Source of the DNA: a virus
Direction: 5' to 3' (one strand)
Length of the DNA stretch: 41,736 bases
IMG/VR virus record: IMGVR_UViG_3300045988_047176
Positions 13,866 through 36,704 of this stretch are shown here, one piece after another. Each line of letters starts with the position of its first letter. Within the stretch, counting starts at the first letter, position 1. The position numbers and the translations under genes are program-made. The notes beneath the pieces were generated by a model. That model was not told the origin of the DNA. It made no database searches and saw only the letters and a program-made list of their open reading frames with translations.

Positions 13866-15188
13866 TTACAGAAAATCAAATTCAATCCGGCGGTCTTTGT
13901 ATAGCCGGATTTCTTTTATTTTGAGTTTCCAAAATGCTTGTTTATTTTCTTTGTTAAGTTGTTTGTATATTTCTTGCCATCCTGCGGAAAATAAGGTTGC
14001 AATTTCTTCTGGTGCGCGGCTTTGTGATTTTACTTGTGTAATCTCATCCATTTGTGATGTCAGTTCTGCATACTTTTTTGAGTAGTCCGCCTTTGAAATC
14101 ATGTCGTCTATATATAACTCTGACAACTTGGATAGTTTCTTTTGTAAAGCCTTTAATTGCGCATCTTGGTTTTCTTTGGGTTCTTGACGCGGCTTGGCTT
14201 GCAATTTGATCTGTATCTGTTCGTCTATTGTCGACAAGAGATAATCTTCGATTTTCCATTCGACAGTAAAACTACCGTTGTTGCATCCTTTTCTCTGAGC
14301 AGACCCTTGACAATAGTAAGAGTAAGAGCACGCCCCGCTTGGTCGTGGAGACGGATGCCCTGTCATTCTGCGTCCACATTCTCCGCAGACTATCAGCCCC
14401 GAAAAAATATACGTTCGATTGTAAGGCGATTTTCGCGTAATCCTTGTTCGTAAGGCTTGCACACGCTGAAATTCCTGCGGGGTCAAATACGGGGGTAATT
14501 TTATCCCGTGCCAGTCACCCATGTATCCGGGGTTGTCCAACATTTGGCTGGCTGTTTGGTATTTAAGGTTTAATTCCGGGGCTGCGTCCATCGCTTTTGT
14601 TATGGAGCCGGTTTCCAAAAATGTAGAGAAGTATCTCCGTATAACTGGCTCTGTCTCTTTGTCTATAACGGCAAATTTCCCCTCTATTTTGTACCCCTTT
14701 GGTAAGTGCCCGGTGCAAACCTCATTCCGCTCTTTTTTGGCATCAAGCACACGTTTTATACGTTCGCTGGCGCGGTCAGCTTCGTCCTGTGCTACAGCAA
14801 GCATAATGTTGATCTTCAACCGGCCTGCGGCTGTGGATGTGTCGTAGTCCTCATAGATCGTTTTCCACGACACGTTGTGGGCTTCAAGGATCTCCTGCAC
14901 CTTGTAATATTCGCCGATATTGCGAAACCACCTGTCCAGCTTTGTGACAAGAATAATGTCTACCTCATCATGCTTTACGGCTTCCAGCAGTTGAAGCATG
15001 GCGGGACGCTTTTCAATCTTTTTTCTGGCGGAAAACCCGGCATCCTGGAAAACGCCTACCACCTTCATATTGTGGGCTTTGGCGTATTCTTCGAGGTCGT
15101 GCTGCTGATCGTGAATAGACAGGCCGAATTTTTTCTGTTCTTCTGTGGACACACGCGGGTATAATGCTGCCCGCAATACTACACTCAT
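13866..15188 (-). CDS. Large serine recombinase (phage integrase)
   Basis: 440 aa. It has the resolvase-type N-terminus AALYPRVSTEEQ (catalytic Ser), the recombinase domain, a zinc ribbon (CGECGRRM...C..GC) and a C-terminal coiled coil. RBS GGGAGGAG. Confidence 0.9.
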   Translation of the reverse strand: MSVVLRAALYPRVSTEEQKKFGLSIHDQQHDLEEYAKAHNMKVVGVFQDAGFSARKKIEKRPAMLQLLEAVKHDEVDIILVTKLDRWFRNIGEYYKVQEILEAHNVSWKTIYEDYDTSTAAGRLKINIMLAVAQDEADRASERIKRVLDAKKERNEVCTGHLPKGYKIEGKFAVIDKETEPVIRRYFSTFLETGSITKAMDAAPELNLKYQTASQMLDNPGYMGDWHGIKLPPYLTPQEFQRVQALRTRITRKSPYNRTYIFSGLIVCGECGRRMTGHPSPRPSGACSYSYYCQGSAQRKGCNNGSFTVEWKIEDYLLSTIDEQIQIKLQAKPRQEPKENQDAQLKALQKKLSKLSELYIDDMISKADYSKKYAELTSQMDEITQVKSQSRAPEEIATLFSAGWQEIYKQLNKENKQAFWKLKIKEIRLYKDRRIEFDFL

Positions 15189-15796
15189 TGTTCATCTCCT
15201 CCCTTATCTGGCGACAATGTATACTTTTTTGCATAGCGCAAATACATCATCAAAATAGCGGCAAAAATGCCGATACCGGCGGCAAGAAGCAAAAAGACGA
15301 TCCATGCGAATATGCTGGCCTCTCCACCCTGAATAAGCCCCTGGTGGGGGATACGGTAGTCAAAAAAGATATATCCCACGATAACAGCCATAAATATGGC
15401 GCACAAAAACGTAAGGCCATAAATAGCAAATTTTGTGTCTCGCGATTTCTTGCGGTGGTAGTTAATGGTTTTTGCCATCTGCTCCATGCTTCCCTCAAGA
15501 TGGGCTATTTGCACATCGGCATCATGCAGCTGCTTTTGGTGCTTTAACTGTTCATTGGCTTTCGTCAATTGATCTTCCGTTGTCACTTCTTTTTCGATCC
15601 CGAAATATTCATCCATTGAAACGCCAAGCGCGGCACAAATTAAACCCATTTTGTACACGCTCGGCTCCTTTGATGACGCGGAGAAAAAATTGCTTATGGT
15701 TGATGCTGAAATGTCCGTCATGTCGGACAAATCTTGTATAGTTAAATTCTGTCGGTCTTTTGCATCCCTGCACAAATCCTGCAACGATTTTACCAT
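15185..15796 (-). CDS. Membrane-tethered XRE-family HTH protein (candidate repressor or immunity factor)
   Basis: 203 aa. The N-terminal HTH is LTIQDLSDMTDISASTISNFFS, followed by a coiled coil and two C-terminal TM helices (FAIYGLTFLCAIFMAVIVGYIFF; IFAWIVFLLLAAGIGIFAAILMMYL). The stop overlaps the integrase ATG (ATGA). Confidence 0.7.
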   Translation of the reverse strand: MVKSLQDLCRDAKDRQNLTIQDLSDMTDISASTISNFFSASSKEPSVYKMGLICAALGVSMDEYFGIEKEVTTEDQLTKANEQLKHQKQLHDADVQIAHLEGSMEQMAKTINYHRKKSRDTKFAIYGLTFLCAIFMAVIVGYIFFDYRIPHQGLIQGGEASIFAWIVFLLLAAGIGIFAAILMMYLRYAKKYTLSPDKGGDEQ

Positions 15797-15941
15797 TTTC
15801 CCCTTTTACTCCTTTTTCGGGCAGGGAAATCCTAATTCTGTTTTGCCGCAAACGGTAATTATCCGAATTGGGTATTGCCCTGCCAAACCCTGATTTGTTA
15901 ATGTGGACGTGCAGCCGGAAAGCCGAAAGGCCACCGGCGAG

Positions 15942-15980
15942 AATAGCCCCGCTGTCCGTTGCGGGAGCAGCGGGGCTATT
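15942..15980. repeat. 12-bp perfect inverted repeat (hairpin) in the lysogeny-module intergenic region
   Basis: AATAGCCCCGCT ... AGCGGGGCTATT with a 15-nt loop. There is no clear U-tract on either strand. Confidence 0.5.
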
Positions 15981-16029
15981 TAATAAAGACACACATATAA
16001 ACACTTCCCCTCGAAAAAATTTACAAAAG

Positions 16030-16049
16030 GTTGCACGCTGGCGTGCAAC
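16030..16049. promoter_or_regulatory. 20-bp palindrome, candidate operator
   Basis: GTTGCACG-CTGG-CGTGCAAC lies upstream of the small + strand ORFs. A GTGCAACT half-site recurs at 18124-18131 in the immunity switch region. Confidence 0.35.
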
Positions 16050-16132
16050 TATTACCTTGAGCAAAACAATAATAAAGTACAAAAATATTGCACAGATTAG
16101 GAAAAAATGTCAAATTAAGAAAGGGGAAAGAA

Positions 16133-16300
16133 ATGGGTTCTTGTGCAAAGGCAAACGTGTGTGGTATAATGAACACAGGTTTATTGGGGGAATGCGACAT
16201 TGAAACGCTGCGTAGAATAGCGCTTGAAAAAATCAGCCAGCTTTCCGATGAGGACTGCGCTGATATTATGTTTAATCTAAAAGAAAGAGGTGTGCTATGA
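16133..16300 (+). CDS. Hypothetical small protein (55 aa)
   Basis: ATG follows an AAAGGGGAAAG RBS. The stop overlaps the next ATG. Confidence 0.45.
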   Translation: MGSCAKANVCGIMNTGLLGECDIETLRRIALEKISQLSDEDCADIMFNLKERGVL

Positions 16301-16491
16301 GCAAGGACTACGAGATTTACATTGATAGGCTGGCAGAAAACAGTATTATCATAAAAGGCCAAATCAACGACGTTGTATTTGGCTTAAAGGGAATCACAGA
16401 CAAACTTGACACGCTGATCGCGCTCAAGCAAGTTGAATTATCACTCCTGCAACAGCAGCGATTGCCGCAACAGCCGAAAGAACAGTTGTAA
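16297..16491 (+). CDS. Hypothetical small protein (64 aa)
   Basis: The start is translationally coupled (ATGA). The 3' 68 nt overlap the convergent minus-strand ORF. The C-terminal LLQQQRLPQQPKEQL may simply be the antisense shadow of an Ala/Val-rich TM segment. Confidence 0.4.
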   Translation: MSKDYEIYIDRLAENSIIIKGQINDVVFGLKGITDKLDTLIALKQVELSLLQQQRLPQQPKEQL

Positions 16492-16615
16492 TAATAAACC
16501 GCGTTTTTTCGCGGCGTTCCTTGTCGGCTTTTTCTTTGCGTTCCTGTTCCTTGTCTTTCCGTTCCGCTTCCGTTCGCAGCCAGTCTTGCGGATCGGTAGG
16601 ATATAGTGTAGGCAT
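16424..16615 (-). CDS. Small tail-anchored membrane protein (63 aa)
   Basis: The ATG overlaps the stop of the upstream gene (TAATG). The Lys/Glu-rich N-terminus (RKDKEQERKEKADKERREK) is followed by a C-terminal TM segment (FIITTVLSAVAAIAAVAGVIIQLA). Confidence 0.55.
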   Translation of the reverse strand: MPTLYPTDPQDWLRTEAERKDKEQERKEKADKERREKTRFIITTVLSAVAAIAAVAGVIIQLA

Positions 16616-17058
16616 TACTCCAGCTCCTGTAGTTTCTTCGTGGCTTCGTTGATAAGAGCCAACAACACCGCACGATCATTCGTAGCTTTAATAAAGTTTG
16701 ATGCAGCTTCTTTTGAGCCCTCGCCCTCTGCGGCGGGGGCTTCTTTTCCGCCCTGCATTTTTTCCATCAGCTCATGCACCAGGGCAATATCTTCCTGGTA
16801 CTGTGCTGTTTCTTTTTCCGTTTCGCCCTTGGTCAACAAAATTTCCTCCGGAGGAGTGTGGAGCAGGAGGCACATTTGGGCGGCTTCTTCAGGGGAAGGT
16901 AAATTTCTGTTCCTTTTCAAGTCAGAAACCCATGAAGTTCTGTTTTCAAAGCCCATGTCCAAGCAAAAAGATGTGTTATTCCCGCGGTATATCTTGTGGC
17001 AATCTATTGCATTTTTTACTTTATTATAATTTGTTTTTACAGTTTTTCTTTTAGGCAT
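16615..17058 (-). CDS. XRE-like HTH protein (candidate CI-type repressor)
   Basis: 147 aa. ...FCLDMGFENRTSWVSDLKRNRNLPSPEEAAQMCLLLHTPPEEILL follows the HTH_3 pattern. The C-terminal half is acidic and helical. It is the second gene of the leftward operon. Confidence 0.55.
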   Translation of the reverse strand: MPKRKTVKTNYNKVKNAIDCHKIYRGNNTSFCLDMGFENRTSWVSDLKRNRNLPSPEEAAQMCLLLHTPPEEILLTKGETEKETAQYQEDIALVHELMEKMQGGKEAPAAEGEGSKEAASNFIKATNDRAVLLALINEATKKLQELE

Positions 17059-17062
17059 AATT

Positions 17063-18079
17063 TTATTTTGAGTTATTTTGTCTGTCTATTTCTATAGCTT
17101 CTTCCAATGATTTTGGAATTTTGTATCCAGCATTTTCTACCAAGCAGACCAATTTTTGATACTTAGGGGAGTTTGCATTTTTCATTCTGGAAAAAGCAGA
17201 TGCAGTTTTTGGGAAATCGTTTGGAAATATTGGTTTAAACCAGTAATAAATAATATGGTTCAAGTCTGCTGGGCGCTTCAAAATTTTCGCTTTTTGGCGT
17301 ACTTCCAATAATTTTTTATAATTATAAATTTCTTCTGGCGATCTATCGTCTCTAAACGGCCTTCTACTGTAAAGATAATAATTTCGACACTGAAAAGTAG
17401 GCTCGCTTGTGCCTTCCACAAAAGGAAAAACGCCAAGTCCGCATTGAAAACAAAAATCTTTTGGGAATTTTGGAAATTTAAAATTTAATCCAGACAAGCG
17501 ATATATTCGATTTCTGTATTTGGCGCAAATTTCACAACAAGCCCCCAAATCCCCAACTTCAACTAAATGTGTTTTTAAGTATTCGCAAGACTCAAGGGTT
17601 CTTTTAAATGCTATTTTTCCATAATCGTCTGGATCATCTGTGTATTTTTTTATCCAATTTTCCCATTCTTCTGCTTTTGTAAAACGACCAAGTTCAATAT
17701 TCCAATTTACAATTCGATAATAATCTTTTCTTTGCCAGCTAATAGTTGAATAAAGCATTAACTGGCACGCCTTTCCAAGACAAATCATAGAAAGATCATA
17801 ATTTCCCTCGTTCCACAAAATTCCAGCGTGCATACGCAAGACATAATCCAAGTAACCAGTAACACCTAAATTTTGGGCATTTTTGTTTTCGTGCGTATAA
17901 GTATACTTGGGAACTTCTATTGAATATATAGAATTTCGGTCTGTTAAATCATAGGCAACTCCATCAGAAACAATCGAAGTTGCTTTGTTTATAAGCTCTC
18001 TGGCATCATAATATGATACTCCTGGCTCCGGCAGCATTTTAACTACTTGGCCGTTTTCATAATACACTGTAACGCCCAT
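17063..18079 (-). CDS. Unknown 338-aa protein with a Cys cluster, low GC (candidate prophage-encoded defence or exclusion gene)
   Basis: AAGGTGA RBS. It is the first gene leftward of the immunity switch. By my hand count of sampled lines, GC is roughly one third, against more than half for the structural genes. It contains CCEICAKYRNRIYRLSG...FPKFPKDFCFQCGLGVFPF and no HExxH or HTH motif. Confidence 0.6.
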   Translation of the reverse strand: MGVTVYYENGQVVKMLPEPGVSYYDARELINKATSIVSDGVAYDLTDRNSIYSIEVPKYTYTHENKNAQNLGVTGYLDYVLRMHAGILWNEGNYDLSMICLGKACQLMLYSTISWQRKDYYRIVNWNIELGRFTKAEEWENWIKKYTDDPDDYGKIAFKRTLESCEYLKTHLVEVGDLGACCEICAKYRNRIYRLSGLNFKFPKFPKDFCFQCGLGVFPFVEGTSEPTFQCRNYYLYSRRPFRDDRSPEEIYNYKKLLEVRQKAKILKRPADLNHIIYYWFKPIFPNDFPKTASAFSRMKNANSPKYQKLVCLVENAGYKIPKSLEEAIEIDRQNNSK

Positions 18080-18135
18080 AATAAATCACCTTGTCAAAAT
18101 GTACAAAAAAAAGGTAAATATTTGTGCAACTGTAC

Positions 18136-18152
18136 GCCAGAAAATTTCCGGC
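18136..18152. promoter_or_regulatory. Operator O1 (17-bp imperfect palindrome)
   Basis: GCCAGAA-AAT-TTCCGGC has one arm mismatch relative to O2. Its centre is 30 bp from the centre of O2. Confidence 0.55.
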
Positions 18153-18159
18153 AATAACC

Positions 18160-18188
18160 TTGACAGCCGGAAAAATTCCGGCTATAAT
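18160..18188 (+). promoter_or_regulatory. Rightward early promoter with consensus sigma-70 elements
   Basis: TTGACA (18160-18165), a 17-nt spacer, then TATAAT (18183-18188). Both hexamers are consensus. It faces the cro-like gene. Confidence 0.8.
18166..18182. promoter_or_regulatory. Operator O2, filling the promoter spacer exactly
   Basis: GCCGGAA-AAA-TTCCGGC has perfect 7-bp arms and occupies all 17 nt between the -35 and -10 elements. Confidence 0.65.
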
Positions 18189-18352
18189 GACATCAAGGGC
18201 TTAAACAAGGCAACAAAAAACCACACCCCCATCGCGCTCCATCGCTTTGCGGGATTATAACCGATATTTTGTTGGCTGTCACCTACATAATAACGGGTGG
18301 TTAAGCGTTTGTCAAGTTAAAGTTCTTAATATTGATAAGGAGGGATAAACGC

Positions 18353-18550
18353 TTGACGTTAAAGGAACTCAGGCTTGCGGCTGGATTGCAGCAAGCCGAT
18401 GTCGCAAAGAAACTGAACGTCACTATTACGGCGGTTTCAAATTGGGAACTTGGCAAGAACGCAATTTTGCGGAAGTACCACAAGAAGCTGGCGAAGCTGT
18501 ATGGCGTGAAGGTGGAGGAGCTGATGGGGACGATGATGGAGGGTCAATGA
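18353..18550 (+). CDS. Cro-like XRE-family HTH regulator
   Basis: TTG at 18353 lies 8 nt after an AAGGAGGG RBS (the track's TTG at 18332 lies upstream of the RBS). LTLKELRLAAGLQQADVAKKLNVTITAVSNWELGKN is a classic HTH_3 motif. Confidence 0.75.
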   Translation: MTLKELRLAAGLQQADVAKKLNVTITAVSNWELGKNAILRKYHKKLAKLYGVKVEELMGTMMEGQ

Positions 18551-18990
18551 TTTTTGCTACATGGCGGCAGGGTTGCCGGTATGTGGCCGACGCGCAAAAG
18601 GTCTATGAAGAAATAACGGCCATCGGCGCAGCGGCCACAACAAAGCAGATTTTGGACAAGGCACGAGATGAAAACACTGAGCTTCACAAGTGCTTTGACT
18701 GGAACGACACGGAAGCTGCTGAAAAGTGGCGGATGCATCAGGCGCGAAATATCGCTTGCAGCCTTGTCATTAAGGAGACCAAAAGTGAAAGTAGCCCGCC
18801 GGTGCGGTTGTTTTACCAAACAGACAGCGAAAGCGGGTATAAGCCGACGGTTCTTATTATGCAAAACAAGGGCGAATATCAGAAGTTGCTTGCCAGGGCG
18901 CTGGCAGAATTGAGAAGTTTTCAAGCCAAGTACAAGACTTTGACGGAGCTTGACGGCGTATTTGATGCCATTGAGCAGCTTGCGGGGTAA
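18547..18990 (+). CDS. Hypothetical early protein (147 aa)
   Basis: The ATG overlaps the cro-like stop (ATGA). It contains ...ELHKCFDWNDTEAAEKWRMHQARNIA..., a motif I recall from phage early proteins but cannot name. Confidence 0.5.
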   Translation: MIFATWRQGCRYVADAQKVYEEITAIGAAATTKQILDKARDENTELHKCFDWNDTEAAEKWRMHQARNIACSLVIKETKSESSPPVRLFYQTDSESGYKPTVLIMQNKGEYQKLLARALAELRSFQAKYKTLTELDGVFDAIEQLAG

Positions 18991-20728: not shown

Positions 20729-20946
20729 TCGGGCTGGTGAACCGGACGGCTCCGCCCTGCAAGGGCTGCCAGCGCAGACACGCGATGTGCCACGGGGAGT
20801 GCGAGGACTACAAAGCGTTCCGGCGGGCCGTACAGGCCGACAAGGCGAAACGCTACGCATCGTACAGCGAGGCTGATTTTTACAGCATGAACAGCGCAAG
20901 ACGAGAGAGCGCCAAAAAGGCGATAAGAAAGAGGGATGGAAGATGA
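20725..20946 (+). CDS. Small Cys-rich (zinc-finger-like) protein
   Basis: The GTG start overlaps the upstream stop (GTGA). 73 aa with PPCKGCQRRHAMCHGECEDY. The longer track ORF starting at 20299 lies out of frame inside the 3D-domain gene (20228..20728). Confidence 0.5.
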   Translation: MIGLVNRTAPPCKGCQRRHAMCHGECEDYKAFRRAVQADKAKRYASYSEADFYSMNSARRESAKKAIRKRDGR

Positions 20947-21779
20947 AGGCTTACAAGGCAACAGACAAGGACATGAAATGCCGTGGGTTCCAGTATGAGC
21001 TTGGCAAGACGGAGGAGGTTGACGGAGACGCTAAACTCTGCGAAAGAGGTCTCCACGTCTGCGAAATGCCATTGGATGTTCTGGGTTACTACGCGCCCGG
21101 TGATGGCTCCCGGTATTTCGAAGCGGAGCTGGAGGATGTCAGCGATGAGATGCACAGTGATGACACGAAGCGCGTTGGCAAGAAACTGACTTTGAGCGCG
21201 GAGATCGGTATTCCGGGGTTGGTCAAGGCGCAGGTGGAGTACGTGAAAGCGCAGTGTGATTTTGACAATGTTATCAAAAAGGCGAACAGCGAAAAGAAAA
21301 ACCACGCCACCGGCAATAGGGGCGCAGCATCCGCCACCGGCTGGAGGGGCGCAGCATCCGCCACCGGCGAGAGTGGCGCAGCATCCGCCACCGGCAATAG
21401 TGGCGCAGCATCCGCCACCGGCAATAGTGGCGCAGCATCCGCCACCGGCTGGAGTGGCGCAGCATCCGCCACCGGCGAGAGTGGCGCAGCATCCGCCACC
21501 GGCGATAGGGGCGCAGCATCCGCCACCGGCAATAGTGGCGCAGCATCCGCCACCGGCAATAGGGGCGCAGCATCCGCCACCGGCAAATACTGTGTGGCTA
21601 TGACAACCGGATTTTTTGGCCGCGTTATGGGCGATATCGGCAACGCTATTGTCTGCGTAGAGCGTAGTGATAATGGAGATATCGCCGCCATCCTTTCTGG
21701 CATCGTGGATGGTGAAACGCTGAAACCCGGCGTGTGGTACACCGTTAAGAACGGCCAATGGGTGGAGGTACAGGGATGA
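20943..21779 (+). CDS. Nonapeptide-repeat protein (N-terminal Cys-containing domain, 10 x GAASATGxx, C-terminal beta domain)
   Basis: 278 aa. The N-terminus is MKAYKATDKDMKCRGFQYELGKTEE...CERGLHVCEMPLDVLGYY, a domain I recall from phage proteins of unknown function. The repeats follow, and the C-terminus reads ...GETLKPGVWYTVKNGQWVEV. Confidence 0.7.
   Translation: MKAYKATDKDMKCRGFQYELGKTEEVDGDAKLCERGLHVCEMPLDVLGYYAPGDGSRYFEAELEDVSDEMHSDDTKRVGKKLTLSAEIGIPGLVKAQVEYVKAQCDFDNVIKKANSEKKNHATGNRGAASATGWRGAASATGESGAASATGNSGAASATGNSGAASATGWSGAASATGESGAASATGDRGAASATGNSGAASATGNRGAASATGKYCVAMTTGFFGRVMGDIGNAIVCVERSDNGDIAAILSGIVDGETLKPGVWYTVKNGQWVEVQG
21321..21590 (+). repeat. Ten tandem 27-bp units: an invariant 21-nt core plus a variable 6-nt block
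   Basis: The core GGCGCAGCATCCGCCACCGGC is identical in all ten units. The variable blocks, in order, are TGGAGG, GAGAGT, AATAGT, AATAGT, TGGAGT, GAGAGT, GATAGG, AATAGT, AATAGG, AAATAC. A partial unit lies at 21303-21320. Confidence 0.95.
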
Positions 21780-27507: not shown

Positions 27508-27783
27508 ATGGGTAAACAGCATTTGAGCAGGGACGACCGCATCTTTATGCGTGGCAAGCTGCAAGGCACACGGGAGAACATGGACATGGTGGCGATGGTG
27601 CTGATGGACAAATGCGGCTGGCACGTCCAAGAGGAGACAGCGGACAGCCGGGACACGCAGAGCATTGCGTATCTGTATGAGTGCCTGGAGAAACTGGCGG
27701 AGGAGATAAACGAAGGCCGCATCAAGCGGAAGCACATCAAGGACGTGCTGAAGGACGAGTGCGGCGTGGTGTTTGGAGATTGA
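27508..27783 (+). CDS. Hypothetical protein (91 aa)
   Basis: The ORF is tightly packed between the two methyltransferase genes. It has no recognisable motif. Confidence 0.45.
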   Translation: MGKQHLSRDDRIFMRGKLQGTRENMDMVAMVLMDKCGWHVQEETADSRDTQSIAYLYECLEKLAEEINEGRIKRKHIKDVLKDECGVVFGD

Positions 27784-27787
27784 TGGA

Positions 27788-29236
27788 ATGAAAATACTGA
27801 TCGGCGGAAGCCCCTGCACACATTGGAGTATCGCACAGACCAAGAACCGCGAAACCGAGGCCAGCGGCGTCGGATGGGAGTTGTTTCTGAATTACCGCAT
27901 CGCGCGGGACAAGTACCAGCCGGACTATTTCCTGTATGAGAACAACAAGTCCATGTCGCCCGCCATCCGGGCGCAGATCACGGCGGAGCTGGGCGTGGAA
28001 CCCGTGCTTATCAACTCCGCGCTGGTATCGGCGCAGAACCGCCAGCGGCTCTACTGGGTGGGAAAGCGTAACCAGGACGGAACATACAGTCGAGTAGACG
28101 TAGAACAGCCGGAGGACAGGGGCGTTTATCTGCGGGACATTTTGGAAACGGGCCTGCCGCTGCGCGAAAAGGCGTATGCACTTTTGAAAGGACACAGCGC
28201 GACGGCGGAGGACGCCATTGCGCGCAGGGCGCGAAACGCGGCTGCGGAACCAATTACCATTAAGCCACTGACCGAAAAAGAGATGGATTACATGGTGCGC
28301 GATAGCAAGGGGAAATACACAGACAGATGGAGCTATTTGCAAAAACCGGGGCAATCAGATAAGGCACTTTGCCTCACGGCAAATGTCAGCAGGGGCGTTC
28401 CATACAATGTGTGCGCTGAACCCGTCCGCATCGGGACTATCGAAAACGACAGCAAGAACCAAGACCACGACAGCCAGCAATACCGTGTCTATTCGCCGGA
28501 CGGAAAGAGCGTGACGCTTTGCGGCAACGGCGGCGGAGTGGGTGCAAAAACTGGATTGTACGCCGTCCCGTGCTGTATGAGATACGAGAGATCGCCGGAG
28601 GCTAAACGCCTCCGCAAACAGTACGAGGCACACGAAATCAGCCACGGCTACCACGAGTTCTCCGAGCTGCACCCGCGCACAGACGGGAAAAACAATACAT
28701 TATCGACGGTTCTTAAAGATAATCCAATTTGCGAGCCTGTCATAGAAAAGGACGAAAGCGGTCATTATGCCATTTCTATGGCAGACGGCAAGAAATACCC
28801 GGTTTACGAAGTCCGAAACGGTCTTATTACCGTCAAAGACAAACAATATCCTATTAAGCTGGCAGACGATTTCTATATCATTCGCAAGCTGACCGTGCGC
28901 GAATGTATGCGTCTCCAAACGGTGCCGGAAACATACGCTTTCCCCGTGAGTGACAGTCAAGCCTATAAAATGCTGGGCAACGGCTGGACGGTGGAGGTGA
29001 TTGCCCACATTATGAGCCATTTTACCGGGCTGACGGAGGAGCCGGTGGAAGTCCTGCCCATGTACGATGGAATGAGTTGCGGGCATATTGCGCTGGACAA
29101 GCTGGGCGCGAAGATCACCGCCTACTATGCGACCGAGATCGACAAATACGCCGTACAGACCACACAGCACAATTTCCCGGACACCGTGCAGTTGGGCGAC
29201 GCTTTCCAAGTACGAAAAGAGGATTGGGTGCTATGA
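27788..29236 (+). CDS. DNA (cytosine-5) methyltransferase, circularly permuted (motifs IV-X precede motifs I-III)
   Basis: The motifs run in this order: IV GGSPCTHWS, V/VI ...YFLYENN, VIII SAQNRQRLYW, IX TVRECMRLQTVPETY, X KMLGNGWTVEV. The C-terminal 60 aa then carry motif I (LPMYDGMSCGHIAL), motif II (YYATEID) and motif III (LGDAF). The start could be TTG at 27773. Confidence 0.8.
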   Translation: MKILIGGSPCTHWSIAQTKNRETEASGVGWELFLNYRIARDKYQPDYFLYENNKSMSPAIRAQITAELGVEPVLINSALVSAQNRQRLYWVGKRNQDGTYSRVDVEQPEDRGVYLRDILETGLPLREKAYALLKGHSATAEDAIARRARNAAAEPITIKPLTEKEMDYMVRDSKGKYTDRWSYLQKPGQSDKALCLTANVSRGVPYNVCAEPVRIGTIENDSKNQDHDSQQYRVYSPDGKSVTLCGNGGGVGAKTGLYAVPCCMRYERSPEAKRLRKQYEAHEISHGYHEFSELHPRTDGKNNTLSTVLKDNPICEPVIEKDESGHYAISMADGKKYPVYEVRNGLITVKDKQYPIKLADDFYIIRKLTVRECMRLQTVPETYAFPVSDSQAYKMLGNGWTVEVIAHIMSHFTGLTEEPVEVLPMYDGMSCGHIALDKLGAKITAYYATEIDKYAVQTTQHNFPDTVQLGDAFQVRKEDWVL

Positions 29237-32044: not shown

Positions 32045-32437
32045 GTGGCTGCAAGGTTGACAGACCGGCAGAAAAAGAAAATACTGGCGGACTATGTGCA
32101 GACCAGCAACTATTGCGCCACAGCCAAACTTAATGGGGTTTCCGCAAACACTGTCAAAAAAATAGTGCAGACAAATGCGGATATTGCGGAAAAACTCATT
32201 AGAAAAAAAGAGGAGAACACCGCCGACGTTTTGACGTACATGGAGAGCCAGCGTGACATGGTGTGCCAGATTATAGGTAAGGGGCTGGCAGTGCTGAATG
32301 ATCCGGCGAAGCTGGCAGAGGCAACGCCCAGCCAAATCACGACTGCTATTGGGACATTGATAGACAAGTGGACGCTGCTACAAGAAAAGACCGCTAATGA
32401 TGACAGCGAGAGGGTTCGGGTGATAATTGATGTCTGA
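32045..32437 (+). CDS. terS: Terminase small subunit
   Basis: GTG lies 8 nt after GAGG; the start is uncertain (32036-32045). About 130 aa with an HTH-like segment (NYCATAKLNGVSANTVKKIV). It overlaps the terL start. Confidence 0.65.
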   Translation: MAARLTDRQKKKILADYVQTSNYCATAKLNGVSANTVKKIVQTNADIAEKLIRKKEENTADVLTYMESQRDMVCQIIGKGLAVLNDPAKLAEATPSQITTAIGTLIDKWTLLQEKTANDDSERVRVIIDV

Positions 32438-33668
32438 CATCCGCCTGTCTGAAAAAATCGGCTCTGCGTTCTACGACGTGGCGCATGACGTGTTTCAGCA
32501 TGGTCATACGCACTACGATTTCAGCGGTGGGCGCGGCTCACTGAAGTCCTCCACGGTGTCTGTACTCGTCCCCCTGCTGCTGATAAACAATCCGGGCACG
32601 CACGCTCTGGTGCTGCGTAAAGTGGCAAACACCATCCGTGACAGCGTGTACGCGCAGTATATCTGGGCAATCGGTGAACTGGGCATGGCGGCGTATTGGG
32701 AAGCAAAGGTTTCCCCGATGGAGCTGATCTACAAGCCTACCGGGCAGAAGATTATGTTTCGCGGCGCCGATGACCCTATGAAAATCAAGTCTATCAAGGT
32801 GCCGTTCGGTTATATTGCTGTGACGCACTTTGAAGAGAAAGACCAGTTTGCCGGTCGTGCCGAGATACGAAACATCTTGCAGTCCACCATGCGCGGCGGC
32901 TCGGTGTTCTGGAACTTTGAAAGCTATAACCCGCCGATCAGCCGCGACAACTGGGCGAACAAAGATAGCCTAGAGGAACGCGCTGACCGGCTGTGCCATA
33001 AATCAACATATTTGCAAGCGCCCCCTGAGTGGCTGGGCCAGCAGTTCCTTGACGAGGCGGAACATCTCAAAGAGACGGACGAACGTGCATATCAGCATGA
33101 GTACTTGGGGATTCCGGTCGGGACAGGCGGCAATGTGTTTGACAACCTGGAACTGCGGGAAATCACGGACGAAGAGATTTCGTATTTTGACCGCATTTAC
33201 CAGGGCGTAGACTGGGGCTGGTTCCCTGATCCGTTTGCGTTTATCCGGCTGCATTATGACCGAGCGCGAGAAACGATTTTTCTCATTGATGAGATTTACC
33301 AAAACAAATTGACAAACGAAGCAAGCGGTGGACTCATCAAAAAGCGCAACTATATCGATGCGTACATCACCTGCGATAGCGCAGAACCGAAAAGCACTGC
33401 GGACTATCGTGCATTGGGCCTTTCGGCAAAAGAAGCGGTCAAAGGCCCTGGCTCTGTTGACTACGGTATGAAGTGGCTGCAACGCCGGAAGATCGTCATC
33501 GACCGTCGCCGGACGCCGAATGCATACAACGAATTTGTAAATTACGAATACGAGCGGAATAAAGACGGCGATATCATCAGCGGTTATCCTGATGAAAATA
33601 ATCATTTGATTGATGCCACAAGATACGCTTTAGAGCGGATTTCTCGCCGGATGGGAGTTATCGCATGA
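32430..33668 (+). CDS. terL: Terminase large subunit (PBSX-family type)
   Basis: About 412 aa. It has a Walker A-like segment (FSGGRGSLKSSTVS), a Walker B/coupling region (...HFEEKDQF) and nuclease-domain motifs (GVDWGW..DPFA; ITCDSAEPKS; NHLIDATRYAL). Confidence 0.9.
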   Translation: MSDIRLSEKIGSAFYDVAHDVFQHGHTHYDFSGGRGSLKSSTVSVLVPLLLINNPGTHALVLRKVANTIRDSVYAQYIWAIGELGMAAYWEAKVSPMELIYKPTGQKIMFRGADDPMKIKSIKVPFGYIAVTHFEEKDQFAGRAEIRNILQSTMRGGSVFWNFESYNPPISRDNWANKDSLEERADRLCHKSTYLQAPPEWLGQQFLDEAEHLKETDERAYQHEYLGIPVGTGGNVFDNLELREITDEEISYFDRIYQGVDWGWFPDPFAFIRLHYDRARETIFLIDEIYQNKLTNEASGGLIKKRNYIDAYITCDSAEPKSTADYRALGLSAKEAVKGPGSVDYGMKWLQRRKIVIDRRRTPNAYNEFVNYEYERNKDGDIISGYPDENNHLIDATRYALERISRRMGVIA

Positions 33669-35095
33669 GTAATGCAGTTATCTTAAAACTTAACGAGTTG
33701 GGCTATACCACTATCCCGGACAGCTTCTACAGCAAAGTGTACGAGTGGAAAAGCTGGTATCAGGGCGATGTAAAAGGCTTCCACAACTACACTGTGCAGA
33801 ACGGTGAGCGACATGTGAAGTGTAGGCGCTACTCCCTTGGCATGGGAAAAAAGCTGTCCGAGGATTGGGCTAATCTCTTGATGAACGAGAAAGTCCAAAT
33901 CACACTTGAGGGTCAGAAAGAGCAGGACTTTATTGACCTGGTGCTGACGGAAAACAACTTCACCGTCAAGGCAAACGAGATGCAGGAGATGAAGTCCGCG
34001 CTGGGCACTGTGGCCTATGTCCCACGTGTCACTGGGCAAGAGATCAGCGAAAGCGGGGATATTGTACCAGGCAACGCATCCGGTATCGTGCTGGACTATG
34101 TGACCATCGAGAACATTTACCCGCTGTCCTGGCAAAATGGATATATCAGCGAGTGCGCGTTTTCTTCCGAAGTCACGCGTGGCGGTAAAGATTATCTGTA
34201 CTTGCAGATACACCGGCGTGAGGACAACGGCAACTATGTCATTGAAAACCGCATCTATTGGTATGACAATGAGCAGCTGGCGGACGAGCAGCTTGTTAAT
34301 GTCAAGGGATTTGAAAATATCCCGCCTGTGGTGCACACAGGTAGCGACAAGCGGCAGTTTGTCATTGACCGGCCCAACATCGCCAACAACGTCAACTATC
34401 TGCTGCCGACCGGTATCGCAATCTACGCCAATGCTATTGACGTATTGCAGGGCGTGGATATTGCCTACGACAGCTACGTCAACGAGTTCAAACTGGGCAA
34501 GAAGCGCATCATGGTTAAGCCGTCTGCGGCGCAGTATCTTGACGGCACCCCTGCTTTTGACCCTGACGATGTGGTGTTTTACGTCATGCCGGAGGATACA
34601 GAAGACGGCGCAGTTGTAACGCCAATTGACATGACGCTGCGGACGGCGGAGCACAACACCGGCATTCAGGATCAGCTCAATATCCTTTCCAGTAAGTGCG
34701 GCTTCGGCGAGACCTATTACCGTTTTGACGGCGGCAGCGTTGCGACGGCGACACAGGTAATCAGCGAAAACTCTACCATGTTCCGCACCATTAAAAAGAT
34801 GGAGATCGTTCTGGAGCAGGCGCTTGTGGAGCTGTGCCGCATCCTGCTTAGGCTGGGCAACACCGCCATGAACGCTGGGTTGAATGAGGATGTGGAGATC
34901 TCCATTGACTTTGATGACAGCATCATTGAGGACAAGCAAACCGACTTTTCCCGTGATATGCAGCTTCTCAGTGCGGGCATTATGAACGATTGGGAGTTCC
35001 GCATGAAGTGGATGAACGAGGACGAGGCGACCGCAAAGGCGGCGCTGCCGAAGATGCAGGACATGACGGATGAGCCAAACACGGAAACAGAGTAA
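33665..35095 (+). CDS. Portal protein (SPP1 Gp6-like)
   Basis: 476 aa. The ATG overlaps the terL stop. The call rests on size and position and on the acidic C-terminus. Confidence 0.85.
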   Translation: MSNAVILKLNELGYTTIPDSFYSKVYEWKSWYQGDVKGFHNYTVQNGERHVKCRRYSLGMGKKLSEDWANLLMNEKVQITLEGQKEQDFIDLVLTENNFTVKANEMQEMKSALGTVAYVPRVTGQEISESGDIVPGNASGIVLDYVTIENIYPLSWQNGYISECAFSSEVTRGGKDYLYLQIHRREDNGNYVIENRIYWYDNEQLADEQLVNVKGFENIPPVVHTGSDKRQFVIDRPNIANNVNYLLPTGIAIYANAIDVLQGVDIAYDSYVNEFKLGKKRIMVKPSAAQYLDGTPAFDPDDVVFYVMPEDTEDGAVVTPIDMTLRTAEHNTGIQDQLNILSSKCGFGETYYRFDGGSVATATQVISENSTMFRTIKKMEIVLEQALVELCRILLRLGNTAMNAGLNEDVEISIDFDDSIIEDKQTDFSRDMQLLSAGIMNDWEFRMKWMNEDEATAKAALPKMQDMTDEPNTETE

Positions 35096-35437: not shown

Positions 35438-35526
35438 TGGGCTATGGAGAAAACCCCGGTACTTTTTGGGTAAACATTGGCACAGATGAAAACCCTAATT
35501 GGGTAGTTTTGGGCTATGTAAGATGA
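35437..35526 (+). CDS. Possible 29-aa peptide (MGYGENPGTFWVNIGTDENPNWVVLGYVR)
   Basis: A GGGGAGG RBS lies 7 nt upstream. The start overlaps the upstream stop (TAATG) and the stop overlaps the next start (ATGA). Confidence 0.4.
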   Translation: MGYGENPGTFWVNIGTDENPNWVVLGYVR

Positions 35527-36704
35527 GCAAGTATCCATTCTCCCCTGAACTGCTGGATGCCATGCCGGAAGAACTGGCAGAGCTGTACCGTGGGCTTGAG
35601 GACGCACTTCTGATGGAGATATGTTCCCGGCTTAAAGCTGCGGATGAACTGAACGAGGTTACGGTGCAGGACATCAAGGTGCTGCGGGCGCATGGCATCG
35701 ATCTGAAAGAGATTGAGAAAGCCATACGCCAGACTACCGGCATCAGCGAGAAAAAGCTGAACGAGCTGATAGACGATGTGGTGGAGCGCAACCAAAAGTA
35801 TTACACCGAGGTCATAGACCTTGCCCGTGTAACACAGCCTGACGTGCTGGTGGATGCAACCACCATTGACGCCATCAAACGGCGAACGCGGGACGTGTTC
35901 CGAAACATCACCGCTTCGATGGGTTTTTTGGTAGACGCAGGGCGGACGATGCTGCCCCCCGCAAAGGCTTACCAGTGGGCTTTAGATGCCGCTACGTTGA
36001 AAGTAGAAAGCGGGGCTATTTCTTATGGGAAAGCCATCAAAGACGCCGTTAGGGAGCTTGCAAGCGGAGGCCTGCGCGTGATTGATTATGAGAGCGGACA
36101 CCGTGACCATGTAGACGTAGCTGCACGCCGCGCCGTAATGACTGGTGTATCGCAGTTGTGCAGTAAGTACACGGAGCAAGCGGCGGAATACTTGAAAACG
36201 CCGTATTACGAAGTGTCTGCCCACGCCGGGGCGCGTGATGTGCTGGGGCCGTCCCCGTGGTCATCGCACAAGGAATGGCAGGGCAAAGTGTATTCCACCC
36301 GCAGCGGCGACATCTACCCGAACATCTACGAGGTTTGCGGCCTGGGTGCTGTGGATGGTCTGGAAGGAGCCAACTGCCGCCACCGCCGCAACGTTTGGGT
36401 TGAGGGCGTAAGCGAACGCACCTACACAGACGAACAGCTTGCCCACATTGACGATGGTTTGGGCTGTACGTTTGAGGGCAAGAACTACACGGCATACGAG
36501 GCCACGCAGGAGCAGCGCAAGGTGGAGCGCACCATACGCAAGCTAAAGCGCGAAAAGGCGGCGTACAGTGCCGCAGGGCTGACAGACGAAGAACAGGCAG
36601 TGAATATCAAACTGCGCCGCCTGAATGCAAAGTACAAGGCGTTCAGTAAGGCGGCGGGGCTGCCGGAGCAGCGGGAAAGGATGAAGGTGCTGTATGAGAA
36701 TTAA
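35523..36704 (+). CDS. Head morphogenesis or minor capsid protein (SPP1 gp7 / Mu F-like)
   Basis: 393 aa and located after the portal. ...GLGAVDGLEGANCRHRRNVWVEG sits in the position of the MuF ...HPNCRC motif. The C-terminus is a coiled coil. Confidence 0.7.
   Translation: MSKYPFSPELLDAMPEELAELYRGLEDALLMEICSRLKAADELNEVTVQDIKVLRAHGIDLKEIEKAIRQTTGISEKKLNELIDDVVERNQKYYTEVIDLARVTQPDVLVDATTIDAIKRRTRDVFRNITASMGFLVDAGRTMLPPAKAYQWALDAATLKVESGAISYGKAIKDAVRELASGGLRVIDYESGHRDHVDVAARRAVMTGVSQLCSKYTEQAAEYLKTPYYEVSAHAGARDVLGPSPWSSHKEWQGKVYSTRSGDIYPNIYEVCGLGAVDGLEGANCRHRRNVWVEGVSERTYTDEQLAHIDDGLGCTFEGKNYTAYEATQEQRKVERTIRKLKREKAAYSAAGLTDEEQAVNIKLRRLNAKYKAFSKAAGLPEQRERMKVLYEN

Follow-up and report, generated by a model that had tools for sequence, protein, structure and literature searches.

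What kind of protein does a temperate phage encode beside its immunity switch, directly upstream of its repressor gene and on the same strand? The question is raised by the virus record IMGVR_UViG_3300045988_047176 from IMG/VR, a stretch of 41,736 nucleotides (nt) that we analysed as a whole and call the window, and by its gene of 338 amino acids (aa) at 17063-18079; gene and protein are named X338 here. An earlier note on this DNA had described X338 as the first of three co-oriented, nearly contiguous leftward open reading frames (ORFs), with a helix-turn-helix (HTH) gene second. Coordinates, strand and the 4-nt gap between X338 and the 147-aa gene are as it claimed, and the overlap between the 147-aa and the 63-aa gene is 1 nt (TAATG):

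17063-18079, minus strand: X338, ORF of 338 aa, derived from MuF2 (Phage_min_cap2)
16615-17058, minus strand: XRE-type HTH protein of 147 aa, CI-like immunity repressor
16424-16615, minus strand: ORF of a 63-aa tail-anchored membrane peptide with a C-terminal hydrophobic helix

Our comparisons indicate that X338 descends from a MuF2 minor head protein and is optional cargo inside a swappable immunity cassette. The note was right that the gene beside the switch is not a repressor; the repressor is the 147-aa protein. It was also right in likening the Cys cluster to MuF-type zinc knuckles, the homology to MuF covers most of the protein, and the motifs it quoted, CCEICAKYRNRIYRLSG...FPKFPKDFCFQCGLGVFPF, are present. 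Its statement that no motif could be named does not hold, since X338 belongs to the MuF superfamily.

Homology of X338 to MuF2 head proteins

PF06152 (Phage_min_cap2) represents the MuF2 branch of the MuF superfamily (Jamet et al. 2017, PMC5576092). X338 itself stays under the Pfam threshold for PF06152, and a direct Pfam scan gave a weak TPR_8 match and nothing above threshold; the NCBIfam scan yielded no match, and PDB sequence searches with X338 and with the family profile returned chance matches only. PHROG 4611, annotated as "minor head protein", matched residues 172-318 (E 8.7e-8). Weak matches to PF06152 were found for 25 of 43 family members, two longer ones exceeding its gathering score (37.6 and 40.2 bits vs 26.3), and the profile positions matched by the family are ~213-334, within a full MuF domain of ~360 positions. 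When the family was aligned by hhalign to a MuF2 alignment consisting of the window's own MuF2 and ~350-aa Bacillales proteins, the match reached 99.9% probability (E 1.3e-32). A check of two of these Bacillales proteins confirmed them as true members of PF06152; the gene order in L187 is terminase, SPP1-type portal, MuF2, major capsid. With the window's own MuF2 as a single sequence, hhalign returned 1% probability; the relationship is visible only with a multi-sequence MuF2 template.

The hhalign alignment pairs X338 residues 36-85 and 165-323 with MuF2 columns 144-355, starting ~150 positions into MuF2 and skipping X338 residues ~86-160 (~75 residues), which form the TPR-like insert. Common to the X338 family and MuF2 are YxGRvYSxSGxDxRFP, SxRPFxDxR and a Cys/His knuckle. 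Compared with a full-length MuF domain, the first ~150 MuF2 residues are absent and the insert is present. These profile alignments show X338 as a protein evidently derived from MuF2 that was truncated N-terminally by ~150 residues and gained a TPR-like insert.

The AlphaFold2 model of X338 is compact, with a predicted local distance difference test score (pLDDT) of 94 and a predicted template modelling score (pTM) of 0.85. It consists of a beta domain (residues ~1-55), the TPR-like helical insert (~66-168), a small alpha/beta core (~170-246) and a helical C terminus (248-337). Paired helices extend over residues 66-168, and sub-threshold matches to TPR_8, TPR_2 and TPR_1 occurred in 13, 7 and 3 of 43 members, respectively. 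In the Foldseek comparison proposed in the earlier note, the top PDB matches of the full model were TPR proteins, all weak (E >= 1). The best matches in BFVD were gut-phage entries annotated as "minor capsid protein". A separate model of the C terminus (pLDDT 92) matched no solved fold in the PDB, a search in which small domains may be missed. Assignments to the BECR and ADP-ribosyltransferase (ART) folds were dropped after this search.

Within the alpha/beta core lie a four-Cys site (C182, C185, C210, C213) and the motifs AKYxxRxY, FPxxP and SxRPFxDDR; the positions invariant in the family are Y188, R191, G197, P206, R240, D244 and R246. The Cys cluster, previously singled out as the one motif of X338, is indeed present there and in 136 of 231 relatives, but it is not family-wide: the other 95 have SAVxAKYQGRVY in its place. 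Because these relatives do without it, the cluster is a dispensable structural site and not a family signature.

The phage has its genuine MuF2 elsewhere in the window, downstream of the large terminase and portal genes:

32427-33668: large terminase gene (Terminase_3)
33665-35095: portal gene (SPP1_portal)
35499-36704, plus strand: genuine MuF2 (minor capsid protein 2) of 401 aa, full-length PF06152 match (E 4.4e-82)

X338 thus shares homology, motifs, the Cys/His knuckle and encoding by a phage with the MuF2 branch (PF06152; SPP1 gp7 / Mu gpF type). It differs from this branch in being N-truncated and carrying the insert, in residing in the lysogeny operon and not in the packaging module beside portal and terminase, in coexisting with a separate full-length MuF2, and in having relatives in conjugative elements and chromosomes, some of them membrane-anchored. 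To our knowledge, MuF proteins have been known only as capsid-internal proteins that are encoded beside the portal gene and sometimes carry toxins.

Exchange of an immunity cassette among close relatives

For comparison we used ~50 viral contigs whose integrase is at least 94% identical (94-99%) to that of the window. X338 occurs in none of them, and its best viral match is 76% identical. In these relatives the slot holds an unrelated 232-aa gene in some and nothing in others, and the relatives sort into at least six immunity types. The flanking genes considered here are:

13866-15188, minus strand: large serine recombinase (integrase), lysogeny-module backbone
15185-15796, minus strand: 203-aa protein with HTH and two transmembrane (TM) helices, lysogeny-module backbone
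18332-18550, plus strand: Cro-like HTH_3 protein, 72 aa with a TTG start (64-65 aa according to gene callers), Pfam HTH_3 E 2.8e-13

The Cro-like protein is 91-97% identical in L001 and the L036-type relatives. In the L036 type, where it is 96% identical, the slot contains the 232-aa gene (L036:4435-5133; also in L031, L033, L034, L041 and L066) and the repressor has a different N terminus. The 232-aa protein is of low complexity and TPR-like (weak TPR_8), is tied to its own repressor N terminus and to the operator ACGAC-N7-GTCGT, and showed no relationship to X338 in BLASTP. In the L010 type the repressor gene lies near the oppositely oriented cro-like gene, with the slot empty. X338 therefore has the presence/absence polymorphism of a moron, with conserved backbone on both sides (identities of 94-97% for the flanking cro and 90-100% for the 63-aa gene). 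This also answers the suggestion to look for variability of the slot: it varies among close relatives, and X338 is accessory cargo.

The DNA alignments locate the exchange. Left of ~16,900 the window is near-identical to L036; within the following block it resembles L001, whose X338 is 73% identical.

16910-18150, no strand assigned: low-GC mosaic block with X338 and the N-terminal HTH of the repressor (GC profile, alignments)

The left breakpoint falls inside the repressor gene, near the codons for RNLPSPEEAA. Divergence from L036 starts at the operator/-10 region, and the exchanged cassette reaches further right than the block, through the operators to ~18190. The alignments show the unit of exchange, namely the operators, X338 and the repressor's DNA-binding domain, swapped by recombination inside the repressor gene. 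X338 is carried along because it is located between two elements that must co-vary, and these comparisons show it as optional cargo inside a swappable immunity cassette, upstream of the repressor gene and on the same strand. Since the same gene order repeats in at least six independent metagenome assemblies, the locus is not an assembly artefact.

The guanine + cytosine (GC) content of the region is 0.32-0.34 over 17001-18000 vs ~0.52 window-wide, and that of the X338 gene is 0.348 vs 0.528 for the remaining window, in line with the low GC that the earlier note had noticed by hand count. A finer GC profile places the low-GC island from ~16,910 to ~18,150, where it takes in the X338 gene but no more of the HTH gene than its first ~48 codons. 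Beyond these, the HTH gene has a GC content of 0.47-0.56, and the 63-aa gene is likewise not low, so that the description as a low-GC operon fits X338 and the start of the HTH gene but not the HTH gene's remainder or the 63-aa gene. The recent acquisition that had been read from the low GC is weakened as well: the gene lies at least 5 GC points under its flanks in 95 of 102 family loci (median -10). As low GC occurs family-wide, it cannot by itself date an acquisition, and we rejected it as a mark of recent transfer; it is a standing property of the whole family.

Repressor, operators and promoters

The 147-aa protein is a mosaic with the breakpoint inside its gene. The low-GC cassette contributes the N-terminal DNA-binding part (~16910-17058), and the C-terminal tail, ...NDRAxLLALINEATKKLQELE, is common to at least six repressor types among the relatives, which join the same tail to differing N-terminal HTH domains. 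Three of these allelic HTH domains exceed the Pfam HTH_3 or HTH_31 thresholds; the window's own allele gave a weak PHROG match only, and the domain scan detected no autocleavage domain in it. An XRE-type HTH protein beside an oppositely oriented cro gene, with a specificity that co-varies with the operators, is what a repressor of this class looks like. Because of the shared tail, the swapped N-terminal HTH and the operator co-variation, the 147-aa protein is the phage's CI-type immunity repressor. The predicted sites at the switch are:

18167-18181, no strand assigned: predicted operator O1, palindrome CCGGAAAAATTCCGG, in the spacer of the rightward promoter
18137-18151, no strand assigned: predicted operator O2, CCAGAAAATTTCCGG, 30 bp from O1
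18160-18188, plus strand: predicted rightward (lytic, cro) promoter TTGACA-17-TATAAT, 12/12 consensus matches
18254-18315, minus strand: candidate leftward promoter pair in tandem, TTGACA-17-TATTAT and GTGACA-17-TATAAT, consensus matches only

A search with the operator pattern returned two sites, with 0.45 chance matches expected. In L036, O1 is replaced by ACGAC-N7-GTCGT, alongside the different repressor N terminus. The leftward candidates, at 18315-18287 and 18282-18254, are the strongest leftward matches and are conserved in L036, L001, L079 and L080; they would drive the operon that X338 shares with the repressor via a leader of ~170-200 nt across the operators.

The best promoter matches face each other and do not stand back-to-back, an arrangement kept in the same four relatives. 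The two opposing transcripts would share ~50-85 nt, and the leftward one would extend across both operators. The geometry resembles that of phages 186 and P2, with the promoters of the window being consensus matches only. The putative leftward leader contains a conserved hairpin followed by a U-run (CCCGCAAAGCGAUGGAGCGCGAUGGGGGUGUGGUUUUUUG), on the minus strand at ~18213-18250 and antisense to the leader of cro. In L079 and L080 its inner stem reads CGGA/UCCG instead of GCG/CGC, and it is no more stable than shuffled sequence (fold z -0.66); it may serve as an attenuator or mark where a short antisense RNA ends. When 15700-18700 was scanned against Rfam, we obtained one sub-threshold match, to IS009, which we take as chance. 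Further left, a perfect 9-bp inverted repeat, GTTGCACGC-TG-GCGTGCAAC, is found at 16030-16049, upstream of small plus-strand genes, and may be a second operator or a bidirectional terminator.

The 63-aa peptide and other neighbours

The 63-aa gene is 90-100% identical in ~25 relatives without X338, and it is not a conserved neighbour of the X338 family elsewhere. Many of the contigs with the near-identical integrase also keep the convergent 64-aa gene at 97-98% identity. At the same place, L001 has an unrelated 63-aa tail-anchored analogue. The peptide thus is conserved phage backbone and not part of the variable cassette. This removes the peptide as a partner of X338, and with it the single functional three-gene module that had been proposed: the HTH protein is the immunity repressor of the phage, the peptide belongs to the backbone, and only X338 is cargo.

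The 63-aa gene overlaps a convergent 64-aa ORF on the plus strand (16297-16491) by 68 nt, a 55-aa ORF (16133-16300) precedes the latter, and a hairpin with a T-run lies on the minus strand at 16498-16515, inside the 63-aa ORF. L001 has unrelated sequences in the same overlapping small-ORF arrangement. The 203-aa protein, with HTH_3 at its N terminus and two TM helices at its C terminus, overlaps the integrase start and is 76-98% identical across relatives of all immunity types; it is a putative membrane-tethered regulator. In one assembly the integrase end of the same phage type borders a host GerA (spore germination) gene (L206:6855-7103); this points to a real, integrated prophage of a spore-forming Firmicute. 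Elsewhere in the window, 20943-21779 encodes a DUF7666 protein with a collagen-like GxxAASATG repeat array, accompanied by a long antisense ORF, and 27773-29236 a C-5 cytosine DNA methylase.

Distribution of the X338 family

X338 has 91 full-length relatives in 90% clusters, with 33-99% identity. Searching 1.84 billion representatives with the family profile returned 1,621 matches at E <= 1e-3 and 334 at E <= 1e-30; the resulting family clusters (~1,600) are counted at 50% identity. Full-length members come from Oscillospiraceae, Ruminococcaceae, Butyricicoccus and other gut Clostridia. The family gene of several diverged phage groups is located between the switch and the integrase, which is a serine or a tyrosine recombinase, and is followed by an HTH or HTH-TM gene in some phages and directly by the integrase in others. 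In a metagenome-assembled genome of Oscillospiraceae, a 65%-identical copy stands alone, flanked by CotH and MatE genes in the vicinity of rnpA and yidC. Copies of ~50% identity reside in conjugative-type elements beside Bro-N or pRha genes and carry N-terminal FtsK-gamma winged helices or multi-TM anchors. N-terminal extensions are present in 46 of 160 full-length relatives, at least 13 of the 46 being membrane anchors.

The N-terminal and C-terminal halves of the family each occur alone as well. The cultured temperate Blautia phage Montmirail (ON453898.1) encodes a 343-aa "hypothetical protein" upstream of its integrase (L203:3989-5020), of which only the N-terminal beta and TPR-like module matches the family (hhalign 99.7%), the C terminus being different; the neighbour of this gene encodes a bPH_3 + SHOCT protein. 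Among the family fusions (P0230 with 1135 aa, P0168, P0053/54/57/61 and P0059) we observed C-terminal tandem AAA+ ATPases (AAA + AAA_lid_6; one member) and N-terminal FtsK-gamma winged helices or one to four TM helices; an amphipathic start, "MGIF/MGLFxFLK", recurs among them. Our literature searches, directed at MuF-like or TPR proteins of lysogeny modules or with a part in defence, turned up no account of the X338 family.

Possible roles of X338

The interpretation we lean towards, with somewhat less than even confidence, is that X338 would be made in lysogens and, as a mimic of MuF, would block a portal/MuF- or DNA-dependent step of superinfecting phages. Co-transcribed with the repressor, it would be produced in lysogens and shut off at induction. 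The retained MuF core, in real head proteins the portal- and DNA-associating part, would disturb a portal/MuF-dependent step of the incoming phage, for instance the loading of procapsids, packaging or the onset of DNA delivery. Exclusion of this kind would work by a decoy or dominant-negative effect, and the resident phage would escape it since X338 synthesis stops at induction. In a more specific version, which we consider doubtful, a MuF2 head protein would have been exapted as a widespread lysogen-expressed decoy immunity factor that captures the portal, MuF or DNA end of a rival; membrane-anchored relatives would then act at the membrane, and rival packaging or genome delivery would be poisoned.

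We count in favour of such interference the MuF2 homology, the genuine MuF2 encoded elsewhere in the window, the cargo status, the identity of the repressor and the structure of the cassette, the recurrent placement between switch and integrase (and beside the integrase in Montmirail), the autonomy of the gene, its membrane-anchored relatives and the persistent low GC, which is typical of mobile accessory genes. The repressor operon is a position where lysogen-expressed exclusion genes are known, e.g., lambda rexAB. Position and presumed expression logic of X338 resemble lambda rexA-rexB, co-transcribed with cI, as optional cargo in a repressor operon, and there is the same positional likeness to prophage defence genes near the repressor or integrase of other temperate phages. 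X338 differs from rexA-rexB in gene order, with the cargo first and then the repressor, and has no sequence or fold similarity to them. SPP1 gp7/MuF is a strong portal binder that is present in few copies in the capsid; it also binds DNA and helps infection to start (PMC6316719, PMC4493119), and MuF domains deliver fused toxins (PMC5576092). TerI (TERi) of Listeria prophages sabotages packaging by invading phages (bioRxiv 10.1101/2025.02.27.640495). X338 is like it in concept only, as a lysogen-expressed block of invaders' packaging that leaves the resident cycle unharmed; TerI itself is small and unrelated to X338, acts on the terminase and comes with dedicated anti-TerI proteins for self-immunity.

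Several observations weigh against interference. The PADLOC check that the earlier note had called for matched no defence model: PADLOC-DB v2 gave nothing at E <= 1 for the 338-, 147- or 63-aa protein. X338 has no effector domain, and apart from weak TPR similarity its full and C-terminal models match no solved fold. The truncation may have removed the portal contact of MuF. Relatives in conjugative elements and chromosomes show that the family is not tied to capsids, and the same follows from the Montmirail protein, which keeps only the N-terminal module. The leftward promoter is a consensus match only, with the hairpin and its U-run in the putative leader, and the linkage of X338 to the repressor N terminus fits a regulatory role as well.

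As such a regulatory partner of the repressor (sensor, co-repressor or antirepressor), X338 would use its TPR-like module to read a signal and tune lysogeny or induction for its immunity type; this is the main rival explanation, which we regard as unlikely. It would account for inheritance as a block with the DNA-binding N terminus and the operators, for the position of family members directly beside an HTH gene in several phage groups and for the relatives fused to an FtsK-gamma winged helix; the alternative 232-aa slot gene of the L036 type is also TPR-like, with its own HTH N terminus, and a repressor without an autocleavage domain would need a partner for induction. However, there are close relatives whose slot is empty although they share backbone and repressor tail, and the linkage is explained more simply by the position of the gene between two co-varying elements. 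Many relatives are membrane-anchored, the 65%-identical copy between CotH and MatE has no HTH neighbour, and the gene of some phages borders on the integrase and has no HTH gene beside it. Small tail-anchored peptides act as effectors in some known systems, and the earlier note had accordingly seen a three-gene defence or abortive-infection module, with X338 as sensor or effector, the HTH protein as regulator and the 63-aa peptide as membrane effector. Tight packing and common orientation of the ORFs agree with such a module, as does L001, where X338, an HTH gene and a 63-aa tail-anchored peptide follow in the same order. With the peptide conserved where X338 is missing, the HTH protein acting as immunity repressor, no PADLOC match for any of the three, and genes that are not found as a set elsewhere (the family gene has varying downstream neighbours and also stands alone), the module is largely refuted by the comparative data, and we now hold it to be very improbable.

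Hardly less improbable is an enzymatic X338, i.e., a PBECR/BECR-type RNase or ART-like toxin serving as abortive-infection effector. Iyer et al. (2017, PMC5512222) placed the C-terminal domain of Mu F in a predicted RNase clade and found that it also stands alone in phages and conjugative elements, and the X338 family has invariant polar residues (Y188, R191, R240, D244, R246). PBECR/"MuF-C" (PMC5512222) and the X338 family are alike as MuF-associated modules that also occur solo in phages and conjugative elements. X338 differs in lacking a BECR fold match and the catalytic signature: a BECR domain has an N-terminal helix and 4-5 strands with a catalytic His (or Arg) and Ser/Thr, a pattern that X338 does not display, and it has no conserved His or Ser/Thr pair as described for PBECR. 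Foldseek with the C-terminal model found no BECR, ART or other solved fold, no immunity or antitoxin partner is consistently adjacent, and the conserved motifs are also those of structural head MuF2, which makes them inherited and not a new active site. No enzymatic activity is indicated for X338. A further idea starts from the finding that MuF domains direct cargo into the capsid (PMC5576092, PMC6316719) and from the retention of most of the MuF2 core in the family: X338 could enter the capsid of its own phage via the portal and reach the next host by injection, the TPR-like insert serving as payload. This is highly improbable, as the gene lies in the leftward lysogeny operon and is not among the late genes, in contrast to 85-87% of muf genes (PMC5576092), X338 has lost the N-terminal ~150 MuF2 residues, and relatives reside in conjugative elements and chromosomes, some with membrane anchors.

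Implications

These results point to a large unannotated branch of MuF2 that left the head module, lost its N terminus, gained a helical-repeat insert and is now at home in chromosomes, in conjugative-type elements and in the lysogeny or regulatory modules of phages of gut Clostridia. The locus is a clean case of immunity-cassette exchange, in which operators, a cargo gene and the repressor N terminus were replaced by recombination within the repressor gene. The related protein of the cultured Blautia phage Montmirail offers a possible experimental system. Should X338 tune the repressor, lysis-lysogeny decisions would have a new input. If it acts against rivals, a virion protein would have been recycled as immunity, adding a common defence to an under-studied part of the gut virome, and should the decoy version apply, this would be a new class of decoy defence derived from a virion protein and common in human-gut Clostridia phages and conjugative elements.

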